From a virus, in the IMG/VR virus record IMGVR_UViG_3300045988_117996: a DNA stretch of 36,107 nucleotides; one strand, written 5' to 3'. The notes under the pieces are model-generated. The model had not been told where the DNA came from and ran no database searches. It saw only the letters and a program-made list of their open reading frames with translations. A program made the translations under genes and the position numbers. Positions 1 through 36,107 of this stretch are shown here, piece by piece (position 1 is the first letter of the stretch; every line of letters starts with the position of its first letter).

Positions 1-119
1 AGGCGCGCAGGAGGGCCTTCTCGACCTGCTCGATGTTGTTCTGCCGTATCTCGATGCACTCGGCGGTATCCAGCTTCGCGGCGTTTACGATCTCCTCGGT
101 GATGAGGGTCCCGTGCCGC
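1..119. repeat. Terminal direct repeat copy 1 (119 bp, identical to 35989-36107)
   Basis: Base-by-base comparison of both window ends shows 119/119 identity. Typical of an assembly overlap of a circular or terminally redundant molecule. Confidence 0.95.
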
Positions 120-157
120 CCGTGGTCGCCGACGCCGCCGACGAGTCCGTAAGCCAT
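1..157 (-). CDS. HK97 gp10-family head-tail protein, 5' part (gene wraps the junction and continues at 35988..35723)
   Basis: ATG at 157 overlaps the stop of 157..378 (ATGA). Reads MAYGLVGGVGDHGRHGTLITEEIVNAAKLD... Joined length is 157+266=423 nt, 140 aa. Confidence 0.7.
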   Translation of the reverse strand, partial: MAYGLVGGVGDHGRHGTLITEEIVNAAKLDTAECIEIRQNNIEQVEKALLRA

Positions 158-378
158 CAGTCGAGCACCTCGCAGCCGTAGCCAACGCGGCCGTTGACGT
201 CCGCCTCGATGGCCTCGATGGCCTGCACCGGCACGCCCTCGCACCCGAGTGTGCAGCCGTCGTCGGGCTCGACCTCGTCGCCGCGCTGCGTGCAGATGTA
301 GGTGTCCGGGAACGTGAAGCCGAAACCCAGCTTTACGGCGCAGTCGCCGCAGTTCGCGCAAGTGAATAGCTCTTTCAT
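157..378 (-). CDS. Hypothetical Cys-rich small protein (73 aa)
   Basis: ORF track; CANCGDC plus further Cys. Lies downstream of terminator 430-453 and is translationally coupled to the next gene. Confidence 0.6.
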   Translation of the reverse strand: MKELFTCANCGDCAVKLGFGFTFPDTYICTQRGDEVEPDDGCTLGCEGVPVQAIEAIEADVNGRVGYGCEVLD

Positions 379-429
379 GCCTGCCCCAATCTCTCTGCGG
401 GAAGTGTCGCGGCACGGTCACGCGGCATG

Positions 430-453
430 AAAAAAGCCCCGCCGTGGCGGGGC
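430..453 (-). terminator. Rho-independent terminator after the toxin/immunity pair
   Basis: Stem gccccgc/gcggggc (436-453). On the minus strand it is followed by TTTTTT (plus A-run 430-435). Confidence 0.6.
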
Positions 454-463
454 CTGCTGTGAT

Positions 464-730
464 CTATTGGACTTTTACCTCGTGGGCCTTGTCCATCTCA
501 AGCTCGATAGCCGATGGACTCTCGCCTCTGAGGAAAAATGGAATCGGAAAGAAGTCAATCCTGCCCGTTTCCTTGTCGATGGCATAAGGAGTGTCGCCCG
601 GGGTCATCTTTCCATCGAAGCCGAAACCGACGAACCAATGATATTTGCCCTCGTATGCGCACACTGGGCCATAACCATCAACGGCCTCCTCTTCCAGAAT
701 CGGCTTTATAGCCTCTTCCAATGTGAGCAT
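464..730 (-). CDS. Putative immunity protein for the upstream MuF-toxin (88 aa)
   Basis: Starts 2 nt after the toxin stop with RBS AAGAGG. Small and acidic. Motif PYAIDKETGRI resembles YrhB/Imm35-type immunity proteins (from memory, not searched). Confidence 0.55.
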   Translation of the reverse strand: MLTLEEAIKPILEEEAVDGYGPVCAYEGKYHWFVGFGFDGKMTPGDTPYAIDKETGRIDFFPIPFFLRGESPSAIELEMDKAHEVKVQ

Positions 731-731
731 G

Positions 732-2471
732 TCAACCTCTTGTCGTCAGGCACTCGTCGATAAGATCGCCAAACTCGGCGTTGTCGACTCGCGCGAACTC
801 CGTCTCCTCGGCCTTGATTATACCAAAATACCAGCTCACGTCCTCATCGCCGCTCTGTGGGTCTATGAACTTGATAGCGTTTCCCGTCTTTTCCGCAACG
901 AAAACGTGTCGTCCGCTCTTGCCGCAAAGCGCCTGGTCCCAGGTAACGGAGACCTCGGCCCTCGCGTCCCCGTTTATCGCAAGGAGGAATGACATTATTT
1001 CTTTCTCCGGCTTATCGCCACCACGTTTCCAAGTGGCCCCCGGAAACACCTTTTTGTACGACTCGGCGCGCGCGAAGGGGTCATATGCCGATATTTTCCC
1101 CCACTTGTTCATCTTAACCGGCTTCGCAACGACGTCGAGCCCACGCCGTCTCGCCTCATACGCCGGAACGCACCTTTGGCAGTTGTACGAGTACCTGCCG
1201 TCTTTGTCCTTCTTTGTCTTAAAGTTCGGGTTGACCTTGGCAAGGTCGGAGCCCGCGGAATGCTCGCCCTTGATCTCCTTGAAAACGCGCCGACCGTTGA
1301 CAATGGGCGTCGAACCGGGCGCAAGCGCCGTGTCCAACACCTTCTGCTGGTCGCCGGCACTCATCTTGCGGAACGAGCCGGACGGTATGCCGTAGTCCTC
1401 GAGCTGCCGCGAGAGCCGCTTTCGCGCCTCGGTCTTGGACACGCCTGCCGCATCCAGCTTGCGCTTGGTTCCGGGCATTTCCATGAACTCGGAGATGGTG
1501 CGGTTCGCGGGCTTGGTGCCGTTGACGGCGGGCTTGCCCGCCTTCCATTCCTCGTAGGTCATGCCCTCGGGCAGGCGGCTGAACCGCTCGCCGTCGAGCA
1601 CGTCGAGTCCGTCACAGCACGCCACCAGCGTGCAGCGGCAGTTCGCCGTCTCGGCATACGGCGCCTCCGGGTCGCCGGGATAGCGGCACCCGTTGCTGAA
1701 CTTCTCGCCGACCTCGACCTTCTCGCGGTCAATCTTTCTGTGGCTCGATCGCGTGCGCAGGTCGAGCGTCGCCACCCATTCCTGCTGCACCTTGATACCG
1801 AGCCCCTTGGCCCTCTTGTAGCTGTCGACACGCCCGGCGTTCTCCGCCGCAGTCGTCGAGGTGCGCGCCAAACGCACCGCCGCCGCGCGGTTCGCCCCCG
1901 TCACGTTCTGCATGCGCTTGGCTATCTTTGGTATCGACTCGCCGAGCAGCACGCCCTGCGTGATCTGGTTGGCGATGAGCCGGCGGTTCCACGCCACGTC
2001 CTTGACGACGTTGACGGACGGCTTTGGCAGGTAGCTGTCGTGGTCGGTGAGCAGTCTCTGAACGGTCGAGGCGTCCTGCAGTGCGTAGGCCGTGTCAACG
2101 CCAACGGCGCTCTCGACCTGCCACGTGCCGTAGTTGTAGTTCTCGGCGTAGACCTCGGGCAGCCTGCCCTCGATGGCGGCGGCCGCGACGACGTTCGCGT
2201 GCGTCATTGCCTCGGCGCACTGCTTGAGCACGATTCGGTAGCGCCTGCCCGCCGCGATCTTCCCGCTTCGCCAAGACCTGTATTGCGCCTTGGTGATCTC
2301 GCCGGCCTCAAGCCGCTCGCGCATCTTCTCGTCGTCAGCCTCGAACTGCGCCAGATAGCGCTTGAGGTTGGCGTAGGCCGTCTTGCTCGCCTCGCCGTAC
2401 ACTCCCGCCACCTCGCGCTCGAACGCCCGAATCTCGGCGTCTGAGAACTCGTGAGCGCTATCCTTCGCCAT
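732..2471 (-). CDS. Minor head protein (Mu F / SPP1 gp7 domain) fused to a C-terminal papain-fold toxin-like domain
   Basis: MuF region: NRAAAVRLARTSTTAAENAGRVDSY...LDLRTRSSHR...ANCRCT. C-terminus: VNPNF..YSYNCQRCVPAYEARRRG...GRHVFVAE..IKFIDPQSG (Cys-His-Asp order). Start moved to ATG 2471 because GGAGG lies 6 nt upstream. Confidence 0.8.
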   Translation of the reverse strand: MAKDSAHEFSDAEIRAFEREVAGVYGEASKTAYANLKRYLAQFEADDEKMRERLEAGEITKAQYRSWRSGKIAAGRRYRIVLKQCAEAMTHANVVAAAAIEGRLPEVYAENYNYGTWQVESAVGVDTAYALQDASTVQRLLTDHDSYLPKPSVNVVKDVAWNRRLIANQITQGVLLGESIPKIAKRMQNVTGANRAAAVRLARTSTTAAENAGRVDSYKRAKGLGIKVQQEWVATLDLRTRSSHRKIDREKVEVGEKFSNGCRYPGDPEAPYAETANCRCTLVACCDGLDVLDGERFSRLPEGMTYEEWKAGKPAVNGTKPANRTISEFMEMPGTKRKLDAAGVSKTEARKRLSRQLEDYGIPSGSFRKMSAGDQQKVLDTALAPGSTPIVNGRRVFKEIKGEHSAGSDLAKVNPNFKTKKDKDGRYSYNCQRCVPAYEARRRGLDVVAKPVKMNKWGKISAYDPFARAESYKKVFPGATWKRGGDKPEKEIMSFLLAINGDARAEVSVTWDQALCGKSGRHVFVAEKTGNAIKFIDPQSGDEDVSWYFGIIKAEETEFARVDNAEFGDLIDECLTTRG

Positions 2472-2517
2472 GCGCCGCCTCCAATCGTCGGCACGCATGG
2501 TCGCCCGCGCATAACGG

Positions 2518-2545
2518 AAAAGGGCCCCGACCGAAGCCGGGGCCC
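2518..2545 (-). terminator. Rho-independent terminator closing the DGR/fibre cassette
   Basis: Stem gggccccg/cggggccc (2522-2545) with an 8-nt loop. Minus strand continues with TTTT (plus 2518-2521). Confidence 0.6.
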
Positions 2546-2549
2546 TTCC

Positions 2550-2660
2550 CTACTCGCCGTCTGCCTCTAGCATCTGGCGCACCTCGTCGCGCCAGCGCTC
2601 GGGAACGCTCTCGAGCGTGCGCTTGCCGCTTTTCACGGCGCGGTAGTAGATCTTCGCCAA
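2550..2660 (-). CDS. Small 36-aa protein resembling the short XkdX/CD1375-type peptides found after tail-fibre genes
   Basis: Not in the ORF track. TTG start 8 nt after GGAGG. Translates to LAKIYYRAVKSGKRTLESVPERWRDEVRQMLEADGE. Family assignment is from memory. Confidence 0.4.
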   Translation of the reverse strand: MAKIYYRAVKSGKRTLESVPERWRDEVRQMLEADGE

Positions 2661-2661
2661 G

Positions 2662-3003
2662 TTACTCACCTCCAACGATGTCGCCGAGCTCGAGAAGGGC
2701 CGCCTGCGAGTCGGCGACCTGCTGCTGGAGCGATGCGATCTGCTCCTCCATGCTCATGCCGTCCGCCTCGTGAGCCGCCCAGACGGTGTCAAAGTCAGCC
2801 TTTGTGCCCTCGACTGTCAGTTCGCCAGTCGGGTCGGTGAAGTGCAGCTCCTCGTAGGTGAACACCTTCACCTTGACGGAACCGCCCTCGCCGCCCTGCT
2901 CCTCGCGCTCGCCCTCGGCGATGCCGCGGCGCAGCCAGACGTCGGTCCCCGCAATCTCGACCGTCTCGGGCCTCTCGCCCGTTCGCTCCGACTTCACAAC
3001 CAT
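2662..3003 (-). CDS. Hypothetical acidic protein (113 aa), fibre-module associated
   Basis: Strong RBS AGGAGGAAAAAT before ATG 3003. C-terminal helix EEQIASLQQQVADSQAALLELGDIV. Confidence 0.7.
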   Translation of the reverse strand: MVVKSERTGERPETVEIAGTDVWLRRGIAEGEREEQGGEGGSVKVKVFTYEELHFTDPTGELTVEGTKADFDTVWAAHEADGMSMEEQIASLQQQVADSQAALLELGDIVGGE

Positions 3004-3013
3004 ATTTTTCCTC

Positions 3014-4045
3014 CTAACCCACGGCCCTCGCCGCGTTGAATATGCACCGCTTAGCGTTCATCTGGTGCTCCATGACGGCCGTTTTCAACCAGCCCCAGTA
3101 AGAGCACACGCGCCTCGCCAAGCGCTCGGTGCGCCTGCGCATGTAGCGCGCGAACGCGCGTCGCAGTCGTTTCCAGAGCCTCTTTCGCAAGTCGACCCGG
3201 CGCCCGCGAGCGCACCAGATGCGATAGCCCGCGAAGTCGATGGGCTCGGCGCCGTTGCGCCTCACCTTCCACGGCTTCAGTGACAATCCTAGCCGCCCCA
3301 AAACGCGCGCGGCGATGGCCGCGGCCTTCCTGAGCGAGCGCTTTGAGTTGCCGAGAAAATAGCCGTCGTCGGCGTACCACACCTGGCATCCCGCGAGCCT
3401 CACGCGCTTGCCGCGCCGCTCCTTCGCCGCCTCCTCGACCGCGTGGTACGCGAACGAGATCACGAACGCCGCCAACCGAAGCGACAGGTAGCTGCCGAGG
3501 ATAAGGACGCCGTTCATCGTCGACAGCAGCGAATGGAGCAGGTAGAGGACTTGGCTGTTCTTGACGTAGCGCGCCACCAGACCCTCCACTATCTCCGTCC
3601 GCATCGAGCCGTAGCAGTTGCGGATGTCGACGTGTACGTGGTAGGCGAAGCGGTGAACCTCGCGCCTGAGCTTGCGCATCCCCAGCGCCGCGCCCTTGCC
3701 CTTGACGCCGCTCGACACCTGCCAGAAGCCGACCTTGGCGGCAAGGAGCGGCTCGAGCGCCCCAACGCACAGGTAGTTGCACACCTGCCGCTTGATGCTC
3801 TCGACGCTTATCTCGCGCAGCTTGCCGCTGTTCGGGTCGTGTTTCAGATAGGTTCGGATGGGCTCGAACGCAAGCGTCTCGGTCGAGAGCTCTAGCCAGA
3901 TGCGGTCGACGAACGCCGTCTCGGTGCCGTATTCGTCGGCGACGCGCCAGCCGTTCTCCTTGCCGGAGTCGCTTTTCTTCCATCGGTGCAGGGCCTCGAC
4001 GACGCTTCTGCGCGTGAACTCGAGGCCCTTGCAGTAGGTTTTCAT
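3014..4045 (-). CDS. DGR reverse transcriptase (343 aa)
   Basis: RT motifs VDIRNCYGSM (A), LILGSYLSL (B/4), WYADDGYF (C), LGLSLKPWK, FAGYRIW. Lies 157 bp downstream of the TR. Confidence 0.9.
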   Translation of the reverse strand: MKTYCKGLEFTRRSVVEALHRWKKSDSGKENGWRVADEYGTETAFVDRIWLELSTETLAFEPIRTYLKHDPNSGKLREISVESIKRQVCNYLCVGALEPLLAAKVGFWQVSSGVKGKGAALGMRKLRREVHRFAYHVHVDIRNCYGSMRTEIVEGLVARYVKNSQVLYLLHSLLSTMNGVLILGSYLSLRLAAFVISFAYHAVEEAAKERRGKRVRLAGCQVWYADDGYFLGNSKRSLRKAAAIAARVLGRLGLSLKPWKVRRNGAEPIDFAGYRIWCARGRRVDLRKRLWKRLRRAFARYMRRRTERLARRVCSYWGWLKTAVMEHQMNAKRCIFNAARAVG

Positions 4046-4202
4046 AGATCAAAGCTCTTTCTGTCTGTCATACGAGCGTTCGCCTTGCGGCTACCAGCCC
4101 GTGAGCCTTGCGGACAAATTTCACTCAAAGGAGTCAGGCTGAGCCGCGTCCCGCCAGAAAGCGGCGGGCGCGGTAGACACGGTGCGAGTAGAGATTTATA
4201 GA
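4046..4202 (-). other. TR-RT spacer, candidate spacer (Sp) part of the DGR RNA, with a GC hairpin at 4144-4173
   Basis: No ORF. Hairpin ccgcg(t)cccgcc / ggcgggcgcgg with loop agaaagc. Also 9-bp direct repeat gccttgcgg at 4082 and 4105. Confidence 0.45.
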
Positions 4203-4315
4203 CAGAAAGCCGGGAGACGAAGTTCCAAGTGGCCCTACCGGACCTGTTCCTCGAGTTCGCGTAACGAAGACCGGCATTCGAGCCGTTCCTCAGGTTGCCG
4301 AGGAACTGAACCAGA
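4203..4315 (-). repeat. DGR template repeat (TR), 113 bp
   Basis: Gap-free alignment to 4416-4528. 16 of its 19 coding-strand adenines differ in the VR. Non-coding location. Confidence 0.9.
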
Positions 4316-4392
4316 AACCAGCGCCGCCCTCACCGTGAATCCCTGTTTGGGGTTAGGAGGGGGCCAGTCCCCTCTCAGGGCTACGCCCTGAT

Positions 4393-6018
4393 TCACCCCC
4401 GGCTACGGCCCGTAGCAGAAAGCCGGGAGACGAAGCTCCAAGCGGCCCCACCGGACCGGGCCAACGAGTCCGCGCAACGAAGACCGGCACCCGAGCCGAG
4501 CCCCAGGTAGCCGAGGAACCGAACCAGACGGATCGTGCCCTTGACTTTGCCGCCGGAGGTGTCGAAGTAGAAGTAGTCACCGACACCGGTCGTCGCCGAG
4601 CCGCCGAGCCCCTTTCCCAAGATGAGGCCGTTGACGAACTGGATGTCGAGCATGTAGCCATCTGCCGTCGGCATGCACGCCGCCGTCGGGGTCACCCCGT
4701 CCGCCACGGCGTTCTTCTTCTCATTGCGTGTGTCGGGGTTGACCGCGATGCCGAAACCCGTGCCGTCGGAAACGAAGAGCGTATCGCCCATGAACTCCCA
4801 CAGGCCCAGCCCCGTCTCGACGCCGCCGACCTTGAACGGATGCTTGCCGTCCTTCGCCACCTGGCCGTCGCCCACGAGGGCATCGGTGTTGCCCGTGCAC
4901 CACGGCGCACTCTGGAGCCATGTGTTCACGGTCGTGTCGAACGCCTTGGCGACGTCCATGAGAAGCGCCACGTTGCCGTCTGCGAGCGTCTCCTTGCCGC
5001 CGACGACCGCGCCGTCGAACACGTCGTACGCCGCCGCGGCGCCTCGGTCTGGGCACGTGGTGCCCGTGTCGGTGCCGTACATCATCGACGCACCCACGGG
5101 AATCTTCGCCGCCTGCTCGGCGGTGACGACCACGCGCGTGACGCCTGTCTCGGCGAGCGCGGGGTGGATCTGGATGTTGAAGTCCGTGCAACCCGGGAAG
5201 TCCACCTGGGAGGACTTGCAGAGCGTCTTGGTCAACTGGTGGAAGTTGATATACCACTGGTCATAGACGCTCATGCCCGAGTAGCCCGTGGTCGCGGTCT
5301 TGCAAAGGTCGACGAGCGAGTCGTGCGACGTCGTGCGGTTGGCGACCTTCGCGCCCGAGACGGAGCGCGGGCGCCCGTCGGCGTCGATGCTCATGGGATA
5401 CGTCGGCGTCAGCATGTACGGTCGCAGCGTGCCGTCCGGCAGCAACGCCTTGGGGTTCGGCTGCGAGCCGCTGAATCGGCTGTCGGACCACGAGACGAGC
5501 AGGTTGCCGTTCGTCAGCACCTCGACCGCCTGCCACACGACCGGCGCGATCTCGTAGACGTTGTTGCCGTGTCCGTTGTCCACGCGCGAGAAGCCGTAGT
5601 CGACGCCGTCGATGGCCTCGACCCACGGCACGCCGTCGGCGTCGGCACCGGCGTTGGCGGACACGTGGAACCACGGGCCGCCCTCGGCGTCGAACGGGTC
5701 GACAGCCGCGCTCGTCGCCGTCGCGGGCACGAACTCGGTGGAGGCCACGTGCTTCGCGGCAGCGCTCATGGGCTGGATGTCGGTGGGGCTGCCCGCCGGG
5801 ATGAGGAACGTGTACACCAGCCCCGTCTTGTGCTTGTCGACCATCGCGGCGACGGTCTCGTTCTTATAGCGCCCGGTCGAGGCGTCGCGCTCGAGCGTCT
5901 TCTGGTCGCCAAGGTTCTTCACCGCGCCGACAAGCGCCCACACCGCCTCGTCCGATGCCAGCGGGTCCGCGTACTCGAACCCCTCGGTTGCCTGCTCGGC
6001 TGTCTGCGTATCGGCCAT
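4393..6018 (-). CDS. DGR variable (target) protein, putative receptor-binding/fibre protein with a C-type-lectin-like variable C-terminus (541 aa)
   Basis: VR occupies the last ~38 codons (..LVRFLGYLGLGSGAGLRCADSLARSGGAAWSFVSRLS..). ATG 6018 abuts the stop of 6019..6924. Confidence 0.9.
   Translation of the reverse strand: MADTQTAEQATEGFEYADPLASDEAVWALVGAVKNLGDQKTLERDASTGRYKNETVAAMVDKHKTGLVYTFLIPAGSPTDIQPMSAAAKHVASTEFVPATATSAAVDPFDAEGGPWFHVSANAGADADGVPWVEAIDGVDYGFSRVDNGHGNNVYEIAPVVWQAVEVLTNGNLLVSWSDSRFSGSQPNPKALLPDGTLRPYMLTPTYPMSIDADGRPRSVSGAKVANRTTSHDSLVDLCKTATTGYSGMSVYDQWYINFHQLTKTLCKSSQVDFPGCTDFNIQIHPALAETGVTRVVVTAEQAAKIPVGASMMYGTDTGTTCPDRGAAAAYDVFDGAVVGGKETLADGNVALLMDVAKAFDTTVNTWLQSAPWCTGNTDALVGDGQVAKDGKHPFKVGGVETGLGLWEFMGDTLFVSDGTGFGIAVNPDTRNEKKNAVADGVTPTAACMPTADGYMLDIQFVNGLILGKGLGGSATTGVGDYFYFDTSGGKVKGTIRLVRFLGYLGLGSGAGLRCADSLARSGGAAWSFVSRLSATGRSRG
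4402..4416 (-). promoter_or_regulatory. Hairpin abutting the 3' end of the VR (6-bp stem, 3-nt loop), absent next to the TR
   Basis: gctacg ggc cgtagc on the coding strand. Its position matches the VR-flanking hairpin/cruciform element described for the Bordetella phage DGR. Confidence 0.4.
4416..4528 (-). repeat. DGR variable repeat (VR), 113 bp
   Basis: See TR. 17 mismatches, 16 at TR adenines. Lies inside the 3' end of ORF 4393..6018. Confidence 0.9.
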
Positions 6019-19490: not shown

Positions 19491-20462
19491 CTACTTCGTG
19501 CCCACGATCGGCTGGGAGCCCTCGGGCACGACGACGAGGTTGCCGTCCTTGCCGATGCTCTTGAGCGCGTCTATGTAGTGCTGCTGGATGACCTGGTCGT
19601 TGAGCGAGTTCGCGAGGACCGCGTTCGCGTCCGCCTCGCCCTGGGCCTCGATCTTCTTGGTCTCGGCCTGGACCTTGGCCGTCTCCTGCTCGTTCTGGGC
19701 CTTCTGCTTGGCGACCTCGGCCGCCTGCGCCTCGCTGTAGCTCTTGGTGATGTTCTTCGGGTAGCGGACGTCCTGCACGCTCACCTGCTCGACCGTGAGG
19801 CCTATGCCCTTCCACTTCTTGGTTAGGGCCTTCTGGACGGCCTTGGTGAACTGTGAGCGGTCGGTGAGCATCGTCACCGTGTCGAATCCGCCCGAGACCT
19901 CGCGGGTGACGGCGCGGACGTCGTTGGAGATGTACTTCTCCACGAAGCTCTCCTGCGTGCCGTACTCGCTATAGAGCGTGAGCGCGGCGTCGGGGTTGAG
20001 CGAGTAGTTGACCTGGATGTCGATGTTGGCGCTGGCGCCCGACTTGTCGTTGATGGAGACCTGCTTGCCCTCGTAGGAGCCGCCGTCCACCTCGTAGTCG
20101 GTGTCCCCGTAGAAGTTGATGAGGTTGTTGCGGACGTCGTAGGTCACGACGTCCTGCCAGGGGGCCTTGGCGTGGAAACCGGCCTCGGAGGTCGAGCCGG
20201 CGAGCGAGCCGCCGAGGTTGCGGATGACGCAGACCTCGCCGGTGTCCTGCGTGTAGAGGCAGGCGGTGGCGGCGATGACGGCACCTGCCAGGATGAGGGG
20301 CAGGGCGCACGCGGGCGAGACGATGCGGGCCTCGTACTTGTTGCCCCAATGGTCTGCGGGCCCGGCGGCCTTCTCGCGCTCGGCCTCGTTATACCGCTTG
20401 ATGGCGACGGCGGCGGCCACGCCGCCGAGTCCCAGACCAGCTCCGATAATCAGTTGAATCAT
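19491..20462 (-). CDS. SPFH/band-7 (prohibitin/HflKC-like) membrane protein (323 aa)
   Basis: Two N-terminal hydrophobic segments. SPFH core VIRNLGG...GLTVEQVSVQDVRYP. Coiled-coil AQAAEVAKQKAQNEQETAKVQAE. RBS AAGGAG. Confidence 0.8.
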   Translation of the reverse strand: MIQLIIGAGLGLGGVAAAVAIKRYNEAEREKAAGPADHWGNKYEARIVSPACALPLILAGAVIAATACLYTQDTGEVCVIRNLGGSLAGSTSEAGFHAKAPWQDVVTYDVRNNLINFYGDTDYEVDGGSYEGKQVSINDKSGASANIDIQVNYSLNPDAALTLYSEYGTQESFVEKYISNDVRAVTREVSGGFDTVTMLTDRSQFTKAVQKALTKKWKGIGLTVEQVSVQDVRYPKNITKSYSEAQAAEVAKQKAQNEQETAKVQAETKKIEAQGEADANAVLANSLNDQVIQQHYIDALKSIGKDGNLVVVPEGSQPIVGTK

Positions 20463-22026: not shown

Positions 22027-22911
22027 ATGGCTCCGAAAGAGGCAATCGAGAAGATCAGCGCACTCGGTATAGAGATCGGGGTCGCGTCGACCGGCAGCGG
22101 GGACGACTACATCTCGCTCACGGACATAGCAAGGTACAAGAGCGATGAGCCGAAGATGGTGGTGCAGAACTGGATGAGGAACAGGAACACCATCGAGTTC
22201 CTCGGTGTTTGGGAGTCGCTCCACAACCCCGACTTTAAAGGCATCGAATTCGATGCCTTTAGGGAAGAGGCCGGGCTCAACTCCTTCACCCTGACGCCAA
22301 CGAAGTGGATTTCGAGGACAAACGCCATCGGCATAAGGACCAAGAGGGGGAGGTATGCGAGCGGCACGTTCGCCCACAAGGACATCGCATTCGAGTTCGC
22401 CTCGTGGATTTCCCCGGAATTCAAGCTCTACGTCATCAAAGACTACCAGCGTCTGAAGAACGACGAGAACAGCAGGATCTCCGGCGAGTGGAACGAGAAG
22501 AGGCTCTTCTCGAAGATCAACTACCGCATACACACCGACGCCGTAAAGGAGAACCTGCTGAAGCCGAGCATGAGCCGGCAGGTCGAGGGCTACACCTACG
22601 CAAACGAGGCGGACGTCCTCAACGTTGCCCTGTTCGGGATGACGGCAAAGCAGTGGCGGGAGTCGCACGAAGGCGCGACAGGCAACATCAGAGACGAGGC
22701 GAGCCTGCACCAGCTGCTCGTCCTCGCGAACCTCGAAAGCATGAACGCCGAGCTGATCAAGAGGGGAATCGACCGCAGACAGAGGGCGGCATACTTACGA
22801 GAGATGGCTATCAGCCAGCTCTCGACCCTCGAGGGCAGCCCCGTGATAGCGAAGATAGAAGCCGACGATGGAATAGCGGGCGAACTGCCAGAAGACGGGA
22901 CGGAGTCATAG
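22027..22911 (+). CDS. KilA-N domain protein (294 aa)
   Basis: YISLTDIARYK...NWMRNRNTIEFLGVWE...GTFAHKDIAFEFASWISPEFKLYVIKDYQRL. RBS GGAGGAG. Confidence 0.8.
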   Translation: MAPKEAIEKISALGIEIGVASTGSGDDYISLTDIARYKSDEPKMVVQNWMRNRNTIEFLGVWESLHNPDFKGIEFDAFREEAGLNSFTLTPTKWISRTNAIGIRTKRGRYASGTFAHKDIAFEFASWISPEFKLYVIKDYQRLKNDENSRISGEWNEKRLFSKINYRIHTDAVKENLLKPSMSRQVEGYTYANEADVLNVALFGMTAKQWRESHEGATGNIRDEASLHQLLVLANLESMNAELIKRGIDRRQRAAYLREMAISQLSTLEGSPVIAKIEADDGIAGELPEDGTES

Positions 22912-35722: not shown

Positions 35723-36107
35723 CTACGCGCCACCCCTCAGGTGCTTCTCGAGAATCGCCCGGTACGTGTCGCCGTGACCCGTTGCCGCCTTGCGCAGGAA
35801 GTGCTTGCCCTTCATGCGGGAAGTTCCCTCCTCGACGTACGGCGCATACTCGACATTTGTACCGATGAAGCAGTCGTAGCCTTTGAGGAGGTGCGTGACA
35901 GAGTTGCGCAACCTGCCCGTGTCGACCGGGCACGTCGCCTTGGCGTAGCCCTCCGCGACGAGGCCTATCTCCTCTAGGCCCGTTTTATAGGCGCGCAGGA
36001 GGGCCTTCTCGACCTGCTCGATGTTGTTCTGCCGTATCTCGATGCACTCGGCGGTATCCAGCTTCGCGGCGTTTACGATCTCCTCGGTGATGAGGGTCCC
36101 GTGCCGC
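35723..36107 (-). CDS. HK97 gp10-family protein, 3' part (5' end continues at 157..1 through the junction)
   Basis: ..AKATCPVDTGRLRNSVTHLL..IGTNVEYAPYVEEGTSRM.. matches the gp10 family signature. Confidence 0.75.
   Translation of the reverse strand, partial: RHGTLITEEIVNAAKLDTAECIEIRQNNIEQVEKALLRAYKTGLEEIGLVAEGYAKATCPVDTGRLRNSVTHLLKGYDCFIGTNVEYAPYVEEGTSRMKGKHFLRKAATGHGDTYRAILEKHLRGGA
35989..36107. repeat. Terminal direct repeat copy 2 (identical to 1-119)
   Basis: 119/119 identity by direct comparison. Confidence 0.95.

Follow-up and report, generated by a model that had tools for sequence, protein, structure and literature searches.

In the CdiA-CT/CdiI and Rhs-CT/RhsI systems, toxin and immunity gene are swapped as a unit behind a conserved pre-toxin junction, and orphan immunity genes are found together with 3' remnants of the toxin. 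The MuF polymorphic toxins of phages (Jamet et al. 2017, PMC5576092) consist of an N-terminal MuF domain, encoded in the head/packaging module and normally straight after the portal gene, and a variable C-terminal toxin, followed directly 3' by an open reading frame (ORF) of <150 amino acids (aa); they are known from Firmicutes prophages of the human gut. Zhang et al. 2012 (PMC3482391) defined the toxin family Tox-PL1 by its NC-H-DxQ signature, assigned to it a specific immunity family, Imm35, and explicitly reported the MuF-Tox-PL1 fusion in prophages, and Alexei et al. 2024 (PMC11699363) described, among Bxa homologues in Bacteroidales, a MuF-'glutamine deaminase' with an always-adjacent small ORF, whose product AlphaFold 3 is reported there to place on the active site. 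For the MuF toxins Apk2 and Bxa, both toxicity and its neutralisation by the adjacent immunity proteins have been demonstrated (PMC12226406, PMC11699363). Here we analysed a 36,107-nt stretch of viral DNA (IMG/VR record IMGVR_UViG_3300045988_117996; hereafter, the window), in which a gene for a MuF-Tox-PL1 fusion protein is followed by an 88-aa ORF, and we find it likely that a temperate siphophage of Collinsella has here, within its head-morphogenesis module, a MuF polymorphic toxin-immunity locus of which this pair is one allele.

The locus shares with the MuF toxins described so far the N-terminal MuF domain within the head/packaging module, the variable C-terminal toxin, the small ORF directly 3' and, probably, a prophage of a human gut bacterium as its setting, but its host is Collinsella (Actinomycetota) rather than a member of the Firmicutes, and its portal and MuF genes have a diversity-generating retroelement (DGR) cassette between them. 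With the Tox-PL1/Imm35 pair (PMC3482391; PF15644, PF15567) it has in common the NC-H-DxQ signature, a predicted papain fold, the fusion to MuF and an apparently Imm35-type partner, the difference being that the 88-aa protein is undetected by the Pfam Imm35 model and related at the profile level only. The Bacteroidales MuF-'glutamine deaminase' (PMC11699363) likewise joins MuF to the same Pfam toxin family beside an adjoining small ORF. MuF-Tox-PL1 fusions (2012, 2024) and the MuF toxin family (2017) are already known, and the window locus is a further member, in Collinsella. The main text and part of the supplements of Jamet et al. 2017 (PMC5576092) hold no PF15644, papain or deamidase entry, which does not prove its absence from that study.

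We searched IMG/VR with the MuF N-terminus alone, which returned 61 loci, and sorted 68 loci by the motif QQKVLD(T/S)AL into 8 C-terminal types. Sibling phages that share 88-98% identity with the window over the N-terminal 330 residues have at least eight different C-termini after this motif (8 Tox-PL1 alleles, 17 of a JAB-like type with HNHPxSGxPSxxD, two HEFGH types with 10 and 4 members, and four types that are rarer), which is direct evidence for the polymorphic-toxin class to which the earlier note on this DNA had assigned the locus. Past roughly residue 390 (residues of the fusion protein are counted throughout from position 2498, the start of the open frame), protein identity to the sibling alleles falls from ~90-100% to ~20%. 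At the nucleotide level, blastn homology to sibling phages ends at 1307-1333 and restarts at 453-459, which is the terminator hairpin, and the exchanged block, 460-1313, contains exactly the Tox-PL1 domain and the 88-aa gene. Because sibling homology stops at ~1313 and resumes at the terminator, these two form one swappable module. The block also differs in composition from its surroundings, with a GC content of 54.6% against 66% in the flanks and a GC content at third codon positions of 72% in the toxin and 60% in the immunity gene against 88% in the MuF N-terminus. Furthermore, each alternative cassette carries an ORF of its own, of 59-88 aa, at or overlapping the stop codon.

Copies of the 88-aa gene were also found that have lost their toxin. 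In phages with the 673-aa HEFGH type (type D: L111, L119, L129, L130, L136 and L138), homology to the window restarts already at 761, so that an intact 88-aa ORF and, from the Tox-PL1 gene, the last ~30 nt are retained 3' of the new cassette, and L054 and L122 combine a frameshifted toxin with an intact immunity gene. A third situation is seen in L019/L020, where positions 4738-5279 encode an intact 92-aa immunity homologue with only a 38-aa Tox-PL1 fragment upstream; the surroundings are those of a bacterial chromosome (a PG_binding_1 gene, a transposase, CutC and a two-component system), and the gene appears to be an orphan immunity gene that does not belong to a prophage. Polymorphic toxin loci are defined by a fixed junction, by the exchange of toxin and immunity gene as a pair and by immunity genes left behind as displaced orphans. 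In each of these the window locus, with QQKVLDxAL as its junction, is like CdiA-CT/CdiI and Rhs-CT/RhsI, from which it differs in that its carrier is a phage capsid protein and theirs a secretion-system substrate.

The earlier note had named papain-fold, glutamine deamidase-type (Tox-PL1-like) toxins as a match for the C-terminal domain and had picked out Cys, His and Asp candidates, whose codon coordinates proved exact. Consistent with this, Pfam Gln_amidase ('Papain fold toxin 1', PF15644) matches residues 439-550 above its cut-off (E 1.6e-10; 42.5 bits against 24.1). A word-indexed homologue search with the toxin domain gave 11 matches only, and we turned instead to HMMER, with which 1.84 billion representatives were searched exhaustively and 1,281 relatives recovered (E<=1e-3). 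When 151 of these, each representing a different cluster at 50% identity, are aligned, N439, C440, H531, D546, P547 and Q548 are 99-100% conserved, as are N423-P424, R570 and D572; the first six are also invariant in 101 full-length relatives. The domain accordingly combines a toxin-family match with conserved Cys, His and Asp residues, its conserved positions are those of the NC-H-DxQ signature of Tox-PL1, and the alignment supports Cys440-His531-Asp546 as the putative catalytic triad.

Structural prediction with AlphaFold2 gave a confident model of the toxin domain (predicted local distance difference test, pLDDT, 95.2; predicted template modelling score 0.91). Its best Foldseek matches in the PDB are Salmonella SpvD entries 5lq7/5lq6 (E 5.6e-4, probability 1.00, template modelling (TM) score 0.46), and the lower matches are mostly papain-like or transglutaminase-like (phytochelatin synthase, vasohibin, Josephin-type, staphopain), so the model supports a papain-like fold; a sequence search of the PDB with the full MuF-Tox-PL1 protein found nothing significant. 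SpvD is a papain-like Cys-His-Asp hydrolase delivered into another cell, as the domain here is predicted to be, but it shares only 11-13% sequence identity (TM ~0.46) and is a type III secretion system effector that acts on eukaryotic cells, and the match is silent on substrate. Of the suggested 'glutamine deamidase type', the family match therefore stands, while 'glutamine deamidase' is a database (Pfam) label only, the nearest solved fold being the cysteine hydrolase SpvD. The chemistry predicted for Tox-PL1 could be that of a peptidase or of a deamidase.

The remainder of the protein is a phage head protein, as the earlier note had read it (MuF, gp7). Pfam Phage_Mu_F (PF04233) matches residues 175-291 (E 5.6e-17; 62.9 bits against a cut-off of 29.6), tblastn with residues 13-~330 matches 'minor head/capsid' proteins of 402 GenBank phage records, and the MuF part matches PHROG head-morphogenesis families. 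Carriers of this type also predominate among the relatives of the toxin domain: 62 of the 101 relatives with N-terminal extensions have a MuF-type N-terminal domain (29 Phage_Mu_F, 25 Phage_min_cap2, or MuF2, and 8 VG15), with single cases of WXG100/EspC, eCIS-core, ADP-ribosyltransferase or crAss-cargo domains, and no more than 15 aa follow the Tox-PL1 domain before the C-terminus in 151 of 154 relatives. These carrier domains and the C-terminal position lead to the conclusion that the Tox-PL1 branch of the window is overwhelmingly a C-terminal appendage of phage MuF-type proteins.

The main rival to a toxin function is a reading in which Tox-PL1 would be a morphogenetic or self-processing protease that cleaves scaffold or capsid, or releases something in assembly, with the 88-aa protein as its timing inhibitor or chaperone. 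Phages with flanking head genes 95-97% identical to those of the window have unrelated C-termini or a frameshifted Tox-PL1, and the domain is for this reason dispensable for building that capsid. In favour of the rival, a processing role for MuF-linked Tox-PL1 was suggested by Zhang et al. 2012 (PMC3482391). The peptidase-like motifs (HEFGH; HNHPxSGxPSxxD) in alternative cassettes could reflect non-orthologous replacement of a needed protease, and 'head/capsid maturation protease' is the label both on the best PHROG (phrog_595) and on Arthrobacter phage homologues in GenBank; one of these Arthrobacter phages, Martha, nevertheless has a separate protease, gp7, and the head module of the window is SPP1-like or P22-coat-like with a separate scaffold. 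Nor would a maturation protease account for orphan immunity-like genes without a toxin, one of them in a non-phage chromosomal context, for Tox-PL1 domains on WXG100/eCIS-type carriers or for the foreign GC content of the cassette. We consider this explanation improbable.

The earlier note had proposed the 88-aa ORF, which it described as acidic and 2 nt from the toxin stop, as an immunity gene. The protein is indeed acidic (isoelectric point (pI) 4.48; 17 acidic and 8 basic residues), its pI being complementary to that of the toxin domain (8.95), and the ratio of nonsynonymous to synonymous polymorphism (pN/pS) identifies it as a real gene under purifying selection: pN/pS is 0.084 over 19 alleles, lower than in the toxin domain (0.16) and in the MuF N-terminus (0.18). 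Homologues down to 28-40% identity lie directly after a Tox-PL1 domain, often with a 4-nt stop-codon overlap, in MuF1, MuF2, remnant and orphan contexts. They include MuF2 phages of Thermophilibacter and relatives (L013, L017) and a truncated MuF2-toxin remnant beside mraZ/ftsI that is followed by a 92-aa protein (L007, L015; P0210, with an NCBI name from Synergistes jonesii). Among 46 diverged Tox-PL1 loci from species-representative genomes, nearly all have an ORF of 72-105 aa within a few nt of the toxin stop, and these ORFs share, in this order, M-I-T-L-E-x-A, W-[IVF]-F, P-G-x-x-P-h-x-h-x-K-x-[TS]-G and P. Starting from the 88-aa protein, jackhmmer recovers 28 of the downstream ORFs at E<1e-3 (Z=1e6), and among ~2,500 other small ORFs of the same loci it finds only one second-downstream ORF, in L067. 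Toxin and downstream ORF have diverged together, their identities co-varying across loci (Spearman 0.24-0.30, Mantel p 0.001), and toxin and N-terminus identities show no co-variation (Spearman 0.06).

Family assignment of the 88-aa protein was possible at the level of profiles. Hhalign of the 39-sequence family profile against E. coli YrhB, a single Imm35 sequence rather than a second profile, gave a probability of 93.8% (E 1.7e-7), the 60 aligned columns running from Met1 to the end of the K-x-[ST]-G motif; YrhB itself, as a positive control, matches Pfam Imm35 at 4e-23, and the 39 proteins of the family alignment leave the Imm35 model unmatched at E<=1. The same profile aligned at 80.5% with gp5 of Arthrobacter phage Martha, annotated 'immunity protein', whose gene overlaps the MuF-Tox-PL1 gene gp4. 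A PDB sequence search with the family profile and YrhB found nothing significant. On this comparison, the 88-aa protein is a probable remote Imm35 relative, from an unannotated, diverged branch that sits next to phage MuF-Tox-PL1 genes. Adjacency across unrelated carriers, joint replacement with the toxin, orphan retention, purifying selection and remote Imm35 homology together support it as a candidate immunity gene whose product would act as an inhibitor.

These data also bear on the reading that the 88-aa ORF follows the toxin by coincidence, either as a small gene of the phage with no relation to it or as no gene at all. It finds some room in the searches at the level of single sequences, where the 88-aa protein has no Pfam match at E<=1 and no PHROG or PDB match, so that of the Pfam comparisons proposed in the earlier note the one with the toxin region gave a family (Gln_amidase) and the one with the 88-aa protein did not. 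The low pN/pS, however, is joined by a confident AlphaFold2 model, a small alpha+beta domain with pLDDT 93.9; homologues are seen only beside Tox-PL1 domains, whatever the carrier; and the gene is exchanged along with the toxin domain and is remotely similar to Imm35. Comparative data thus effectively refute a coincidental neighbour, which we regard as the least probable of all explanations considered.

The arrangement of the genes argues for coupling of the pair. All genes of the region are on the minus strand, and the ATG of the 88-aa ORF lies 2 nt past the last base of the toxin stop codon, with AGAGG in the last codons of the toxin gene ahead of it. For the fusion gene itself, the spacing of a GGAGG 6 nt 5' of the ATG at 2471 and a 579-aa product in independent gene calls on six metagenome contigs make 2471 the likely start. 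Terminators on both sides had been noted before; two strong hairpins with U-tracts are indeed present, the downstream one at 434-455 (dG -18.2 kcal/mol, z -3.2, followed by U6 in the terminator scan and folding) and the upstream one at ~2517-2550 (dG -29.9 kcal/mol, z -4.46, UUCG loop and UUUUCC tail), but the number of terminator-like sites in 1-4500 (4 observed against 3.8 expected from shuffling) shows no enrichment. The case for framing is made by the quality of these two hairpins and the position of the downstream one at the cassette boundary, not by enrichment.

Two translationally coupled genes between hairpin terminators, a toxin and a small acidic partner, could also be read as a type II toxin-antitoxin or abortive-infection module of the prophage whose place beside the head genes is incidental. 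The covalent fusion of the toxin to a protein of the virion, encoded in the late head operon, and its first place in the gene order make this very unlikely. In addition, no promoter was detected, the 88-aa model is a small alpha+beta domain without a significant structural match and with no pointer to a DNA-binding domain, and C-terminal polymorphism at a fixed junction is a hallmark of polymorphic toxins and not of toxin-antitoxin loci.

SPP1 gp7 is the model for the MuF part as a packaging handle. In a polymorphic toxin-immunity locus built on this analogy, the MuF (SPP1 gp7-like) region (~13-330) and the conserved linker (331-394) would be the carrier, and binding of the MuF region to the portal would lead to a few copies being packaged in the capsid and leaving it with the DNA. 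The C-terminal ~190 aa, a putative Tox-PL1 papain-fold cysteine hydrolase with Cys440, His531 and Asp546, would be the cargo and effector, and the acidic Imm35-like 88-aa protein would bind the toxin domain and block it in the producing cell. Together with the 88-aa gene, the Tox-PL1 domain forms a single recombination cassette between the linker (...QQKVLDxAL) and the downstream terminator, and sibling phages swap it for other effector-immunity pairs. Packaging, delivery, toxicity and inhibition by direct binding are inferences, with support from the experiments on the other MuF toxins Apk2 and Bxa; ecologically, the protein might serve as a weapon against non-immune cells or as an effector on the infected cell.

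Several points weigh against this interpretation. It is paradoxical for a phage to inject a lethal toxin into its own new host, MuF-Tox-PL1 proteins are found in Arthrobacter phages too, and the literature searched yielded no experimentally tested Tox-PL1-type MuF protein. Pfam and PHROG searches of 20 window ORFs found no integrase among them, and a promoter scan found no recognisable promoter of its own for the immunity gene. For the 88-aa protein, Foldseek of the model against the PDB gave no match below E 0.68, with faint PepSY/BLIP-like resemblances only, and Pfam Imm35 (PF15567) was not matched by it or by five relatives, even at E<=10. A variant which we hold to be possible, though clearly less probable, is that the capsid-delivered C-termini are not classical killing toxins but rotating injected peptidase or deamidase effectors (Tox-PL1, possibly the HEFGH- and JAB-motif types), targeting a recipient-cell protein such as a defence or superinfection-exclusion factor, or serving kin discrimination between lysogens. 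In that case, the products of the small ORFs would be inhibitors in the producer cell, and the orphan copies would give cross-immunity between competing Collinsella prophages.

Table 1. Positions of the locus, its parts and the neighbouring retroelement in the window.
Feature	Position	Strand	Remarks
MuF-Tox-PL1 fusion gene	732..2471	-	579 aa from ATG 2471; open frame to 2498 = 588 aa
MuF / minor head protein region	1509..2462	-	residues ~13-330; Pfam core residues 175-291 = 1626-1976
Conserved linker ending QQKVLD(T/S)AL	1317..1508	-	residues 331-394; left recombination junction common to all cassette types
Predicted Tox-PL1 / Gln_amidase papain-fold cysteine hydrolase domain	738..1289	-	residues ~404-587
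Putative catalytic codon, Cys440	1179-1181	-	
Putative catalytic codon, His531	906-908	-	
Putative catalytic codon, Asp546	861-863	-	
88-aa acidic ORF, Imm35-like candidate immunity protein	464..730	-	coupled translationally to the toxin gene
Swappable toxin-immunity cassette, low-GC island	460..1313	-	boundaries from blastn against sibling phages; GC content 54.6%
Intrinsic-terminator-like hairpin and U6	428..455	-	right cassette boundary; kept in all cassette types
Strong hairpin, UUCG loop, UUUUCC tail	2517..2550	-	5' of the MuF gene, after the DGR accessory ORFs
DGR, reverse transcriptase (RT)	3014-4045	-	
DGR, template repeat (TR)	4203-4315	-	
DGR, variable repeat (VR)	4416-4528	-	
DGR, target ORF	4393-6018	-	

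The two ends of the window coincide, positions 1-119 being identical to 35989-36107 (119 bp), which makes it a circularly assembled phage genome of 35,988 bp, with a gp10-like gene spanning the junction. Collinsella contigs of 100-315 kb, an isolate genome among them, contain the same element. Among species-representative genomes there are 33 near-identical (≥92% identity) loci of the element, nearly all labelled Collinsella, and the index of the assembly collection lists the exact 88-aa protein in 1,472 blocks; the probable prophage is very common in human gut Collinsella. Its genes run from small terminase, large terminase, SPP1-type portal, a 300-aa ORF, the DGR target, RT and a 113-aa ORF to the MuF-toxin gene, and from there through the immunity gene, a 73-aa ORF, the gp10-like ORF, scaffold and P22-type coat on via the tape measure to an amidase. 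The MuF gene thus lies in the head/packaging module, but with a 4.4-kb DGR block between it and the portal gene, whereas in the relatives L013 and L017 it directly follows the portal gene.

The DGR, at 3014-6018 on the minus strand, has an RT with a YADD motif and an RVT_1 match (8.7e-6). Its repeats form a 113-nt pair that is 85% identical, and in an alignment read by eye all but one of the mismatches fall at coding-strand TR adenines. The VR is the 3' end of the gene for a 541-aa protein whose C-terminus matches a PHROG 'tail protein', and a DGR with a tail-like target is unusual within a head/packaging module. Elsewhere in the genome, a Band_7/SPFH-domain protein (19491-20462, minus strand) and a KilA-N protein (22027-22911, plus strand) belong to an early or accessory region. 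Just 3' of the terminator, a 73-aa Cys-rich ORF (CANCGDC...C...C; 157-378, minus strand) lies within the conserved flank common to all cassette types, and Pfam and PHROGs gave no family match for it.

At least seven alternative C-terminal domains, of 147-333 aa, take the place of 460-1313 in sibling phages (L103, L110, L111, L134, L135, L139 and L148). Pfam matched none of seven of these domains or of three of their small ORFs. Several of the domains have HEFGH (zincin-like) or HNHPxSGxPSxxD (JAB/MPN-like) motifs, and their putative peptidase nature is read from these motifs only; in the HEFGH types, the small ORFs (59-64 aa) have the motif ERFG[FY]xP in common. Together, the alternative domains and their small ORFs are candidates for undescribed toxin-immunity families.

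Two further observations concern MuF-Tox-PL1 genes in other phages. In Arthrobacter phage Martha (NC_041932, L101; 3274-5276), the MuF-Tox-PL1 gene gp4 is labelled 'head maturation protease' and gp7 is annotated as a protease too; the same label stands in phrog_595 and in the majority of the 29 Arthrobacter phage records that match, and on MuF-Tox-PL1 genes it is probably an annotation error that has spread. The Mu-like Bacteroides phage jmh47_hp (L164, 1571-3292) has a MuF-Tox-PL1 gene followed by a convergent ORF of 89-99 aa on the opposite strand. We rejected this 'glutamine deaminase' immunity ORF as a member of the family of the 88-aa protein: it is convergent and without Imm35-like motifs, and immunity families differ between lineages for that reason, so that jmh47_hp may hold a different immunity solution for the same toxin family.

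Taken together, the window adds three details that appear to be new, namely a candidate immunity protein in an Imm35 branch that Pfam misses, cassette boundaries and at least eight alleles mapped within one phage lineage, and a DGR that separates the portal gene from the MuF gene; these leave its category, a known polymorphic toxin-immunity system, unchanged. Among MuF toxins, the types tested so far are Apk2 and Bxa only. A Pfam-invisible branch of Imm35 appears to accompany phage Tox-PL1 domains, and natural sibling phages that differ almost only in the cassette constitute a ready isogenic series for capsid-delivered effectors and for protection by orphan immunity genes.

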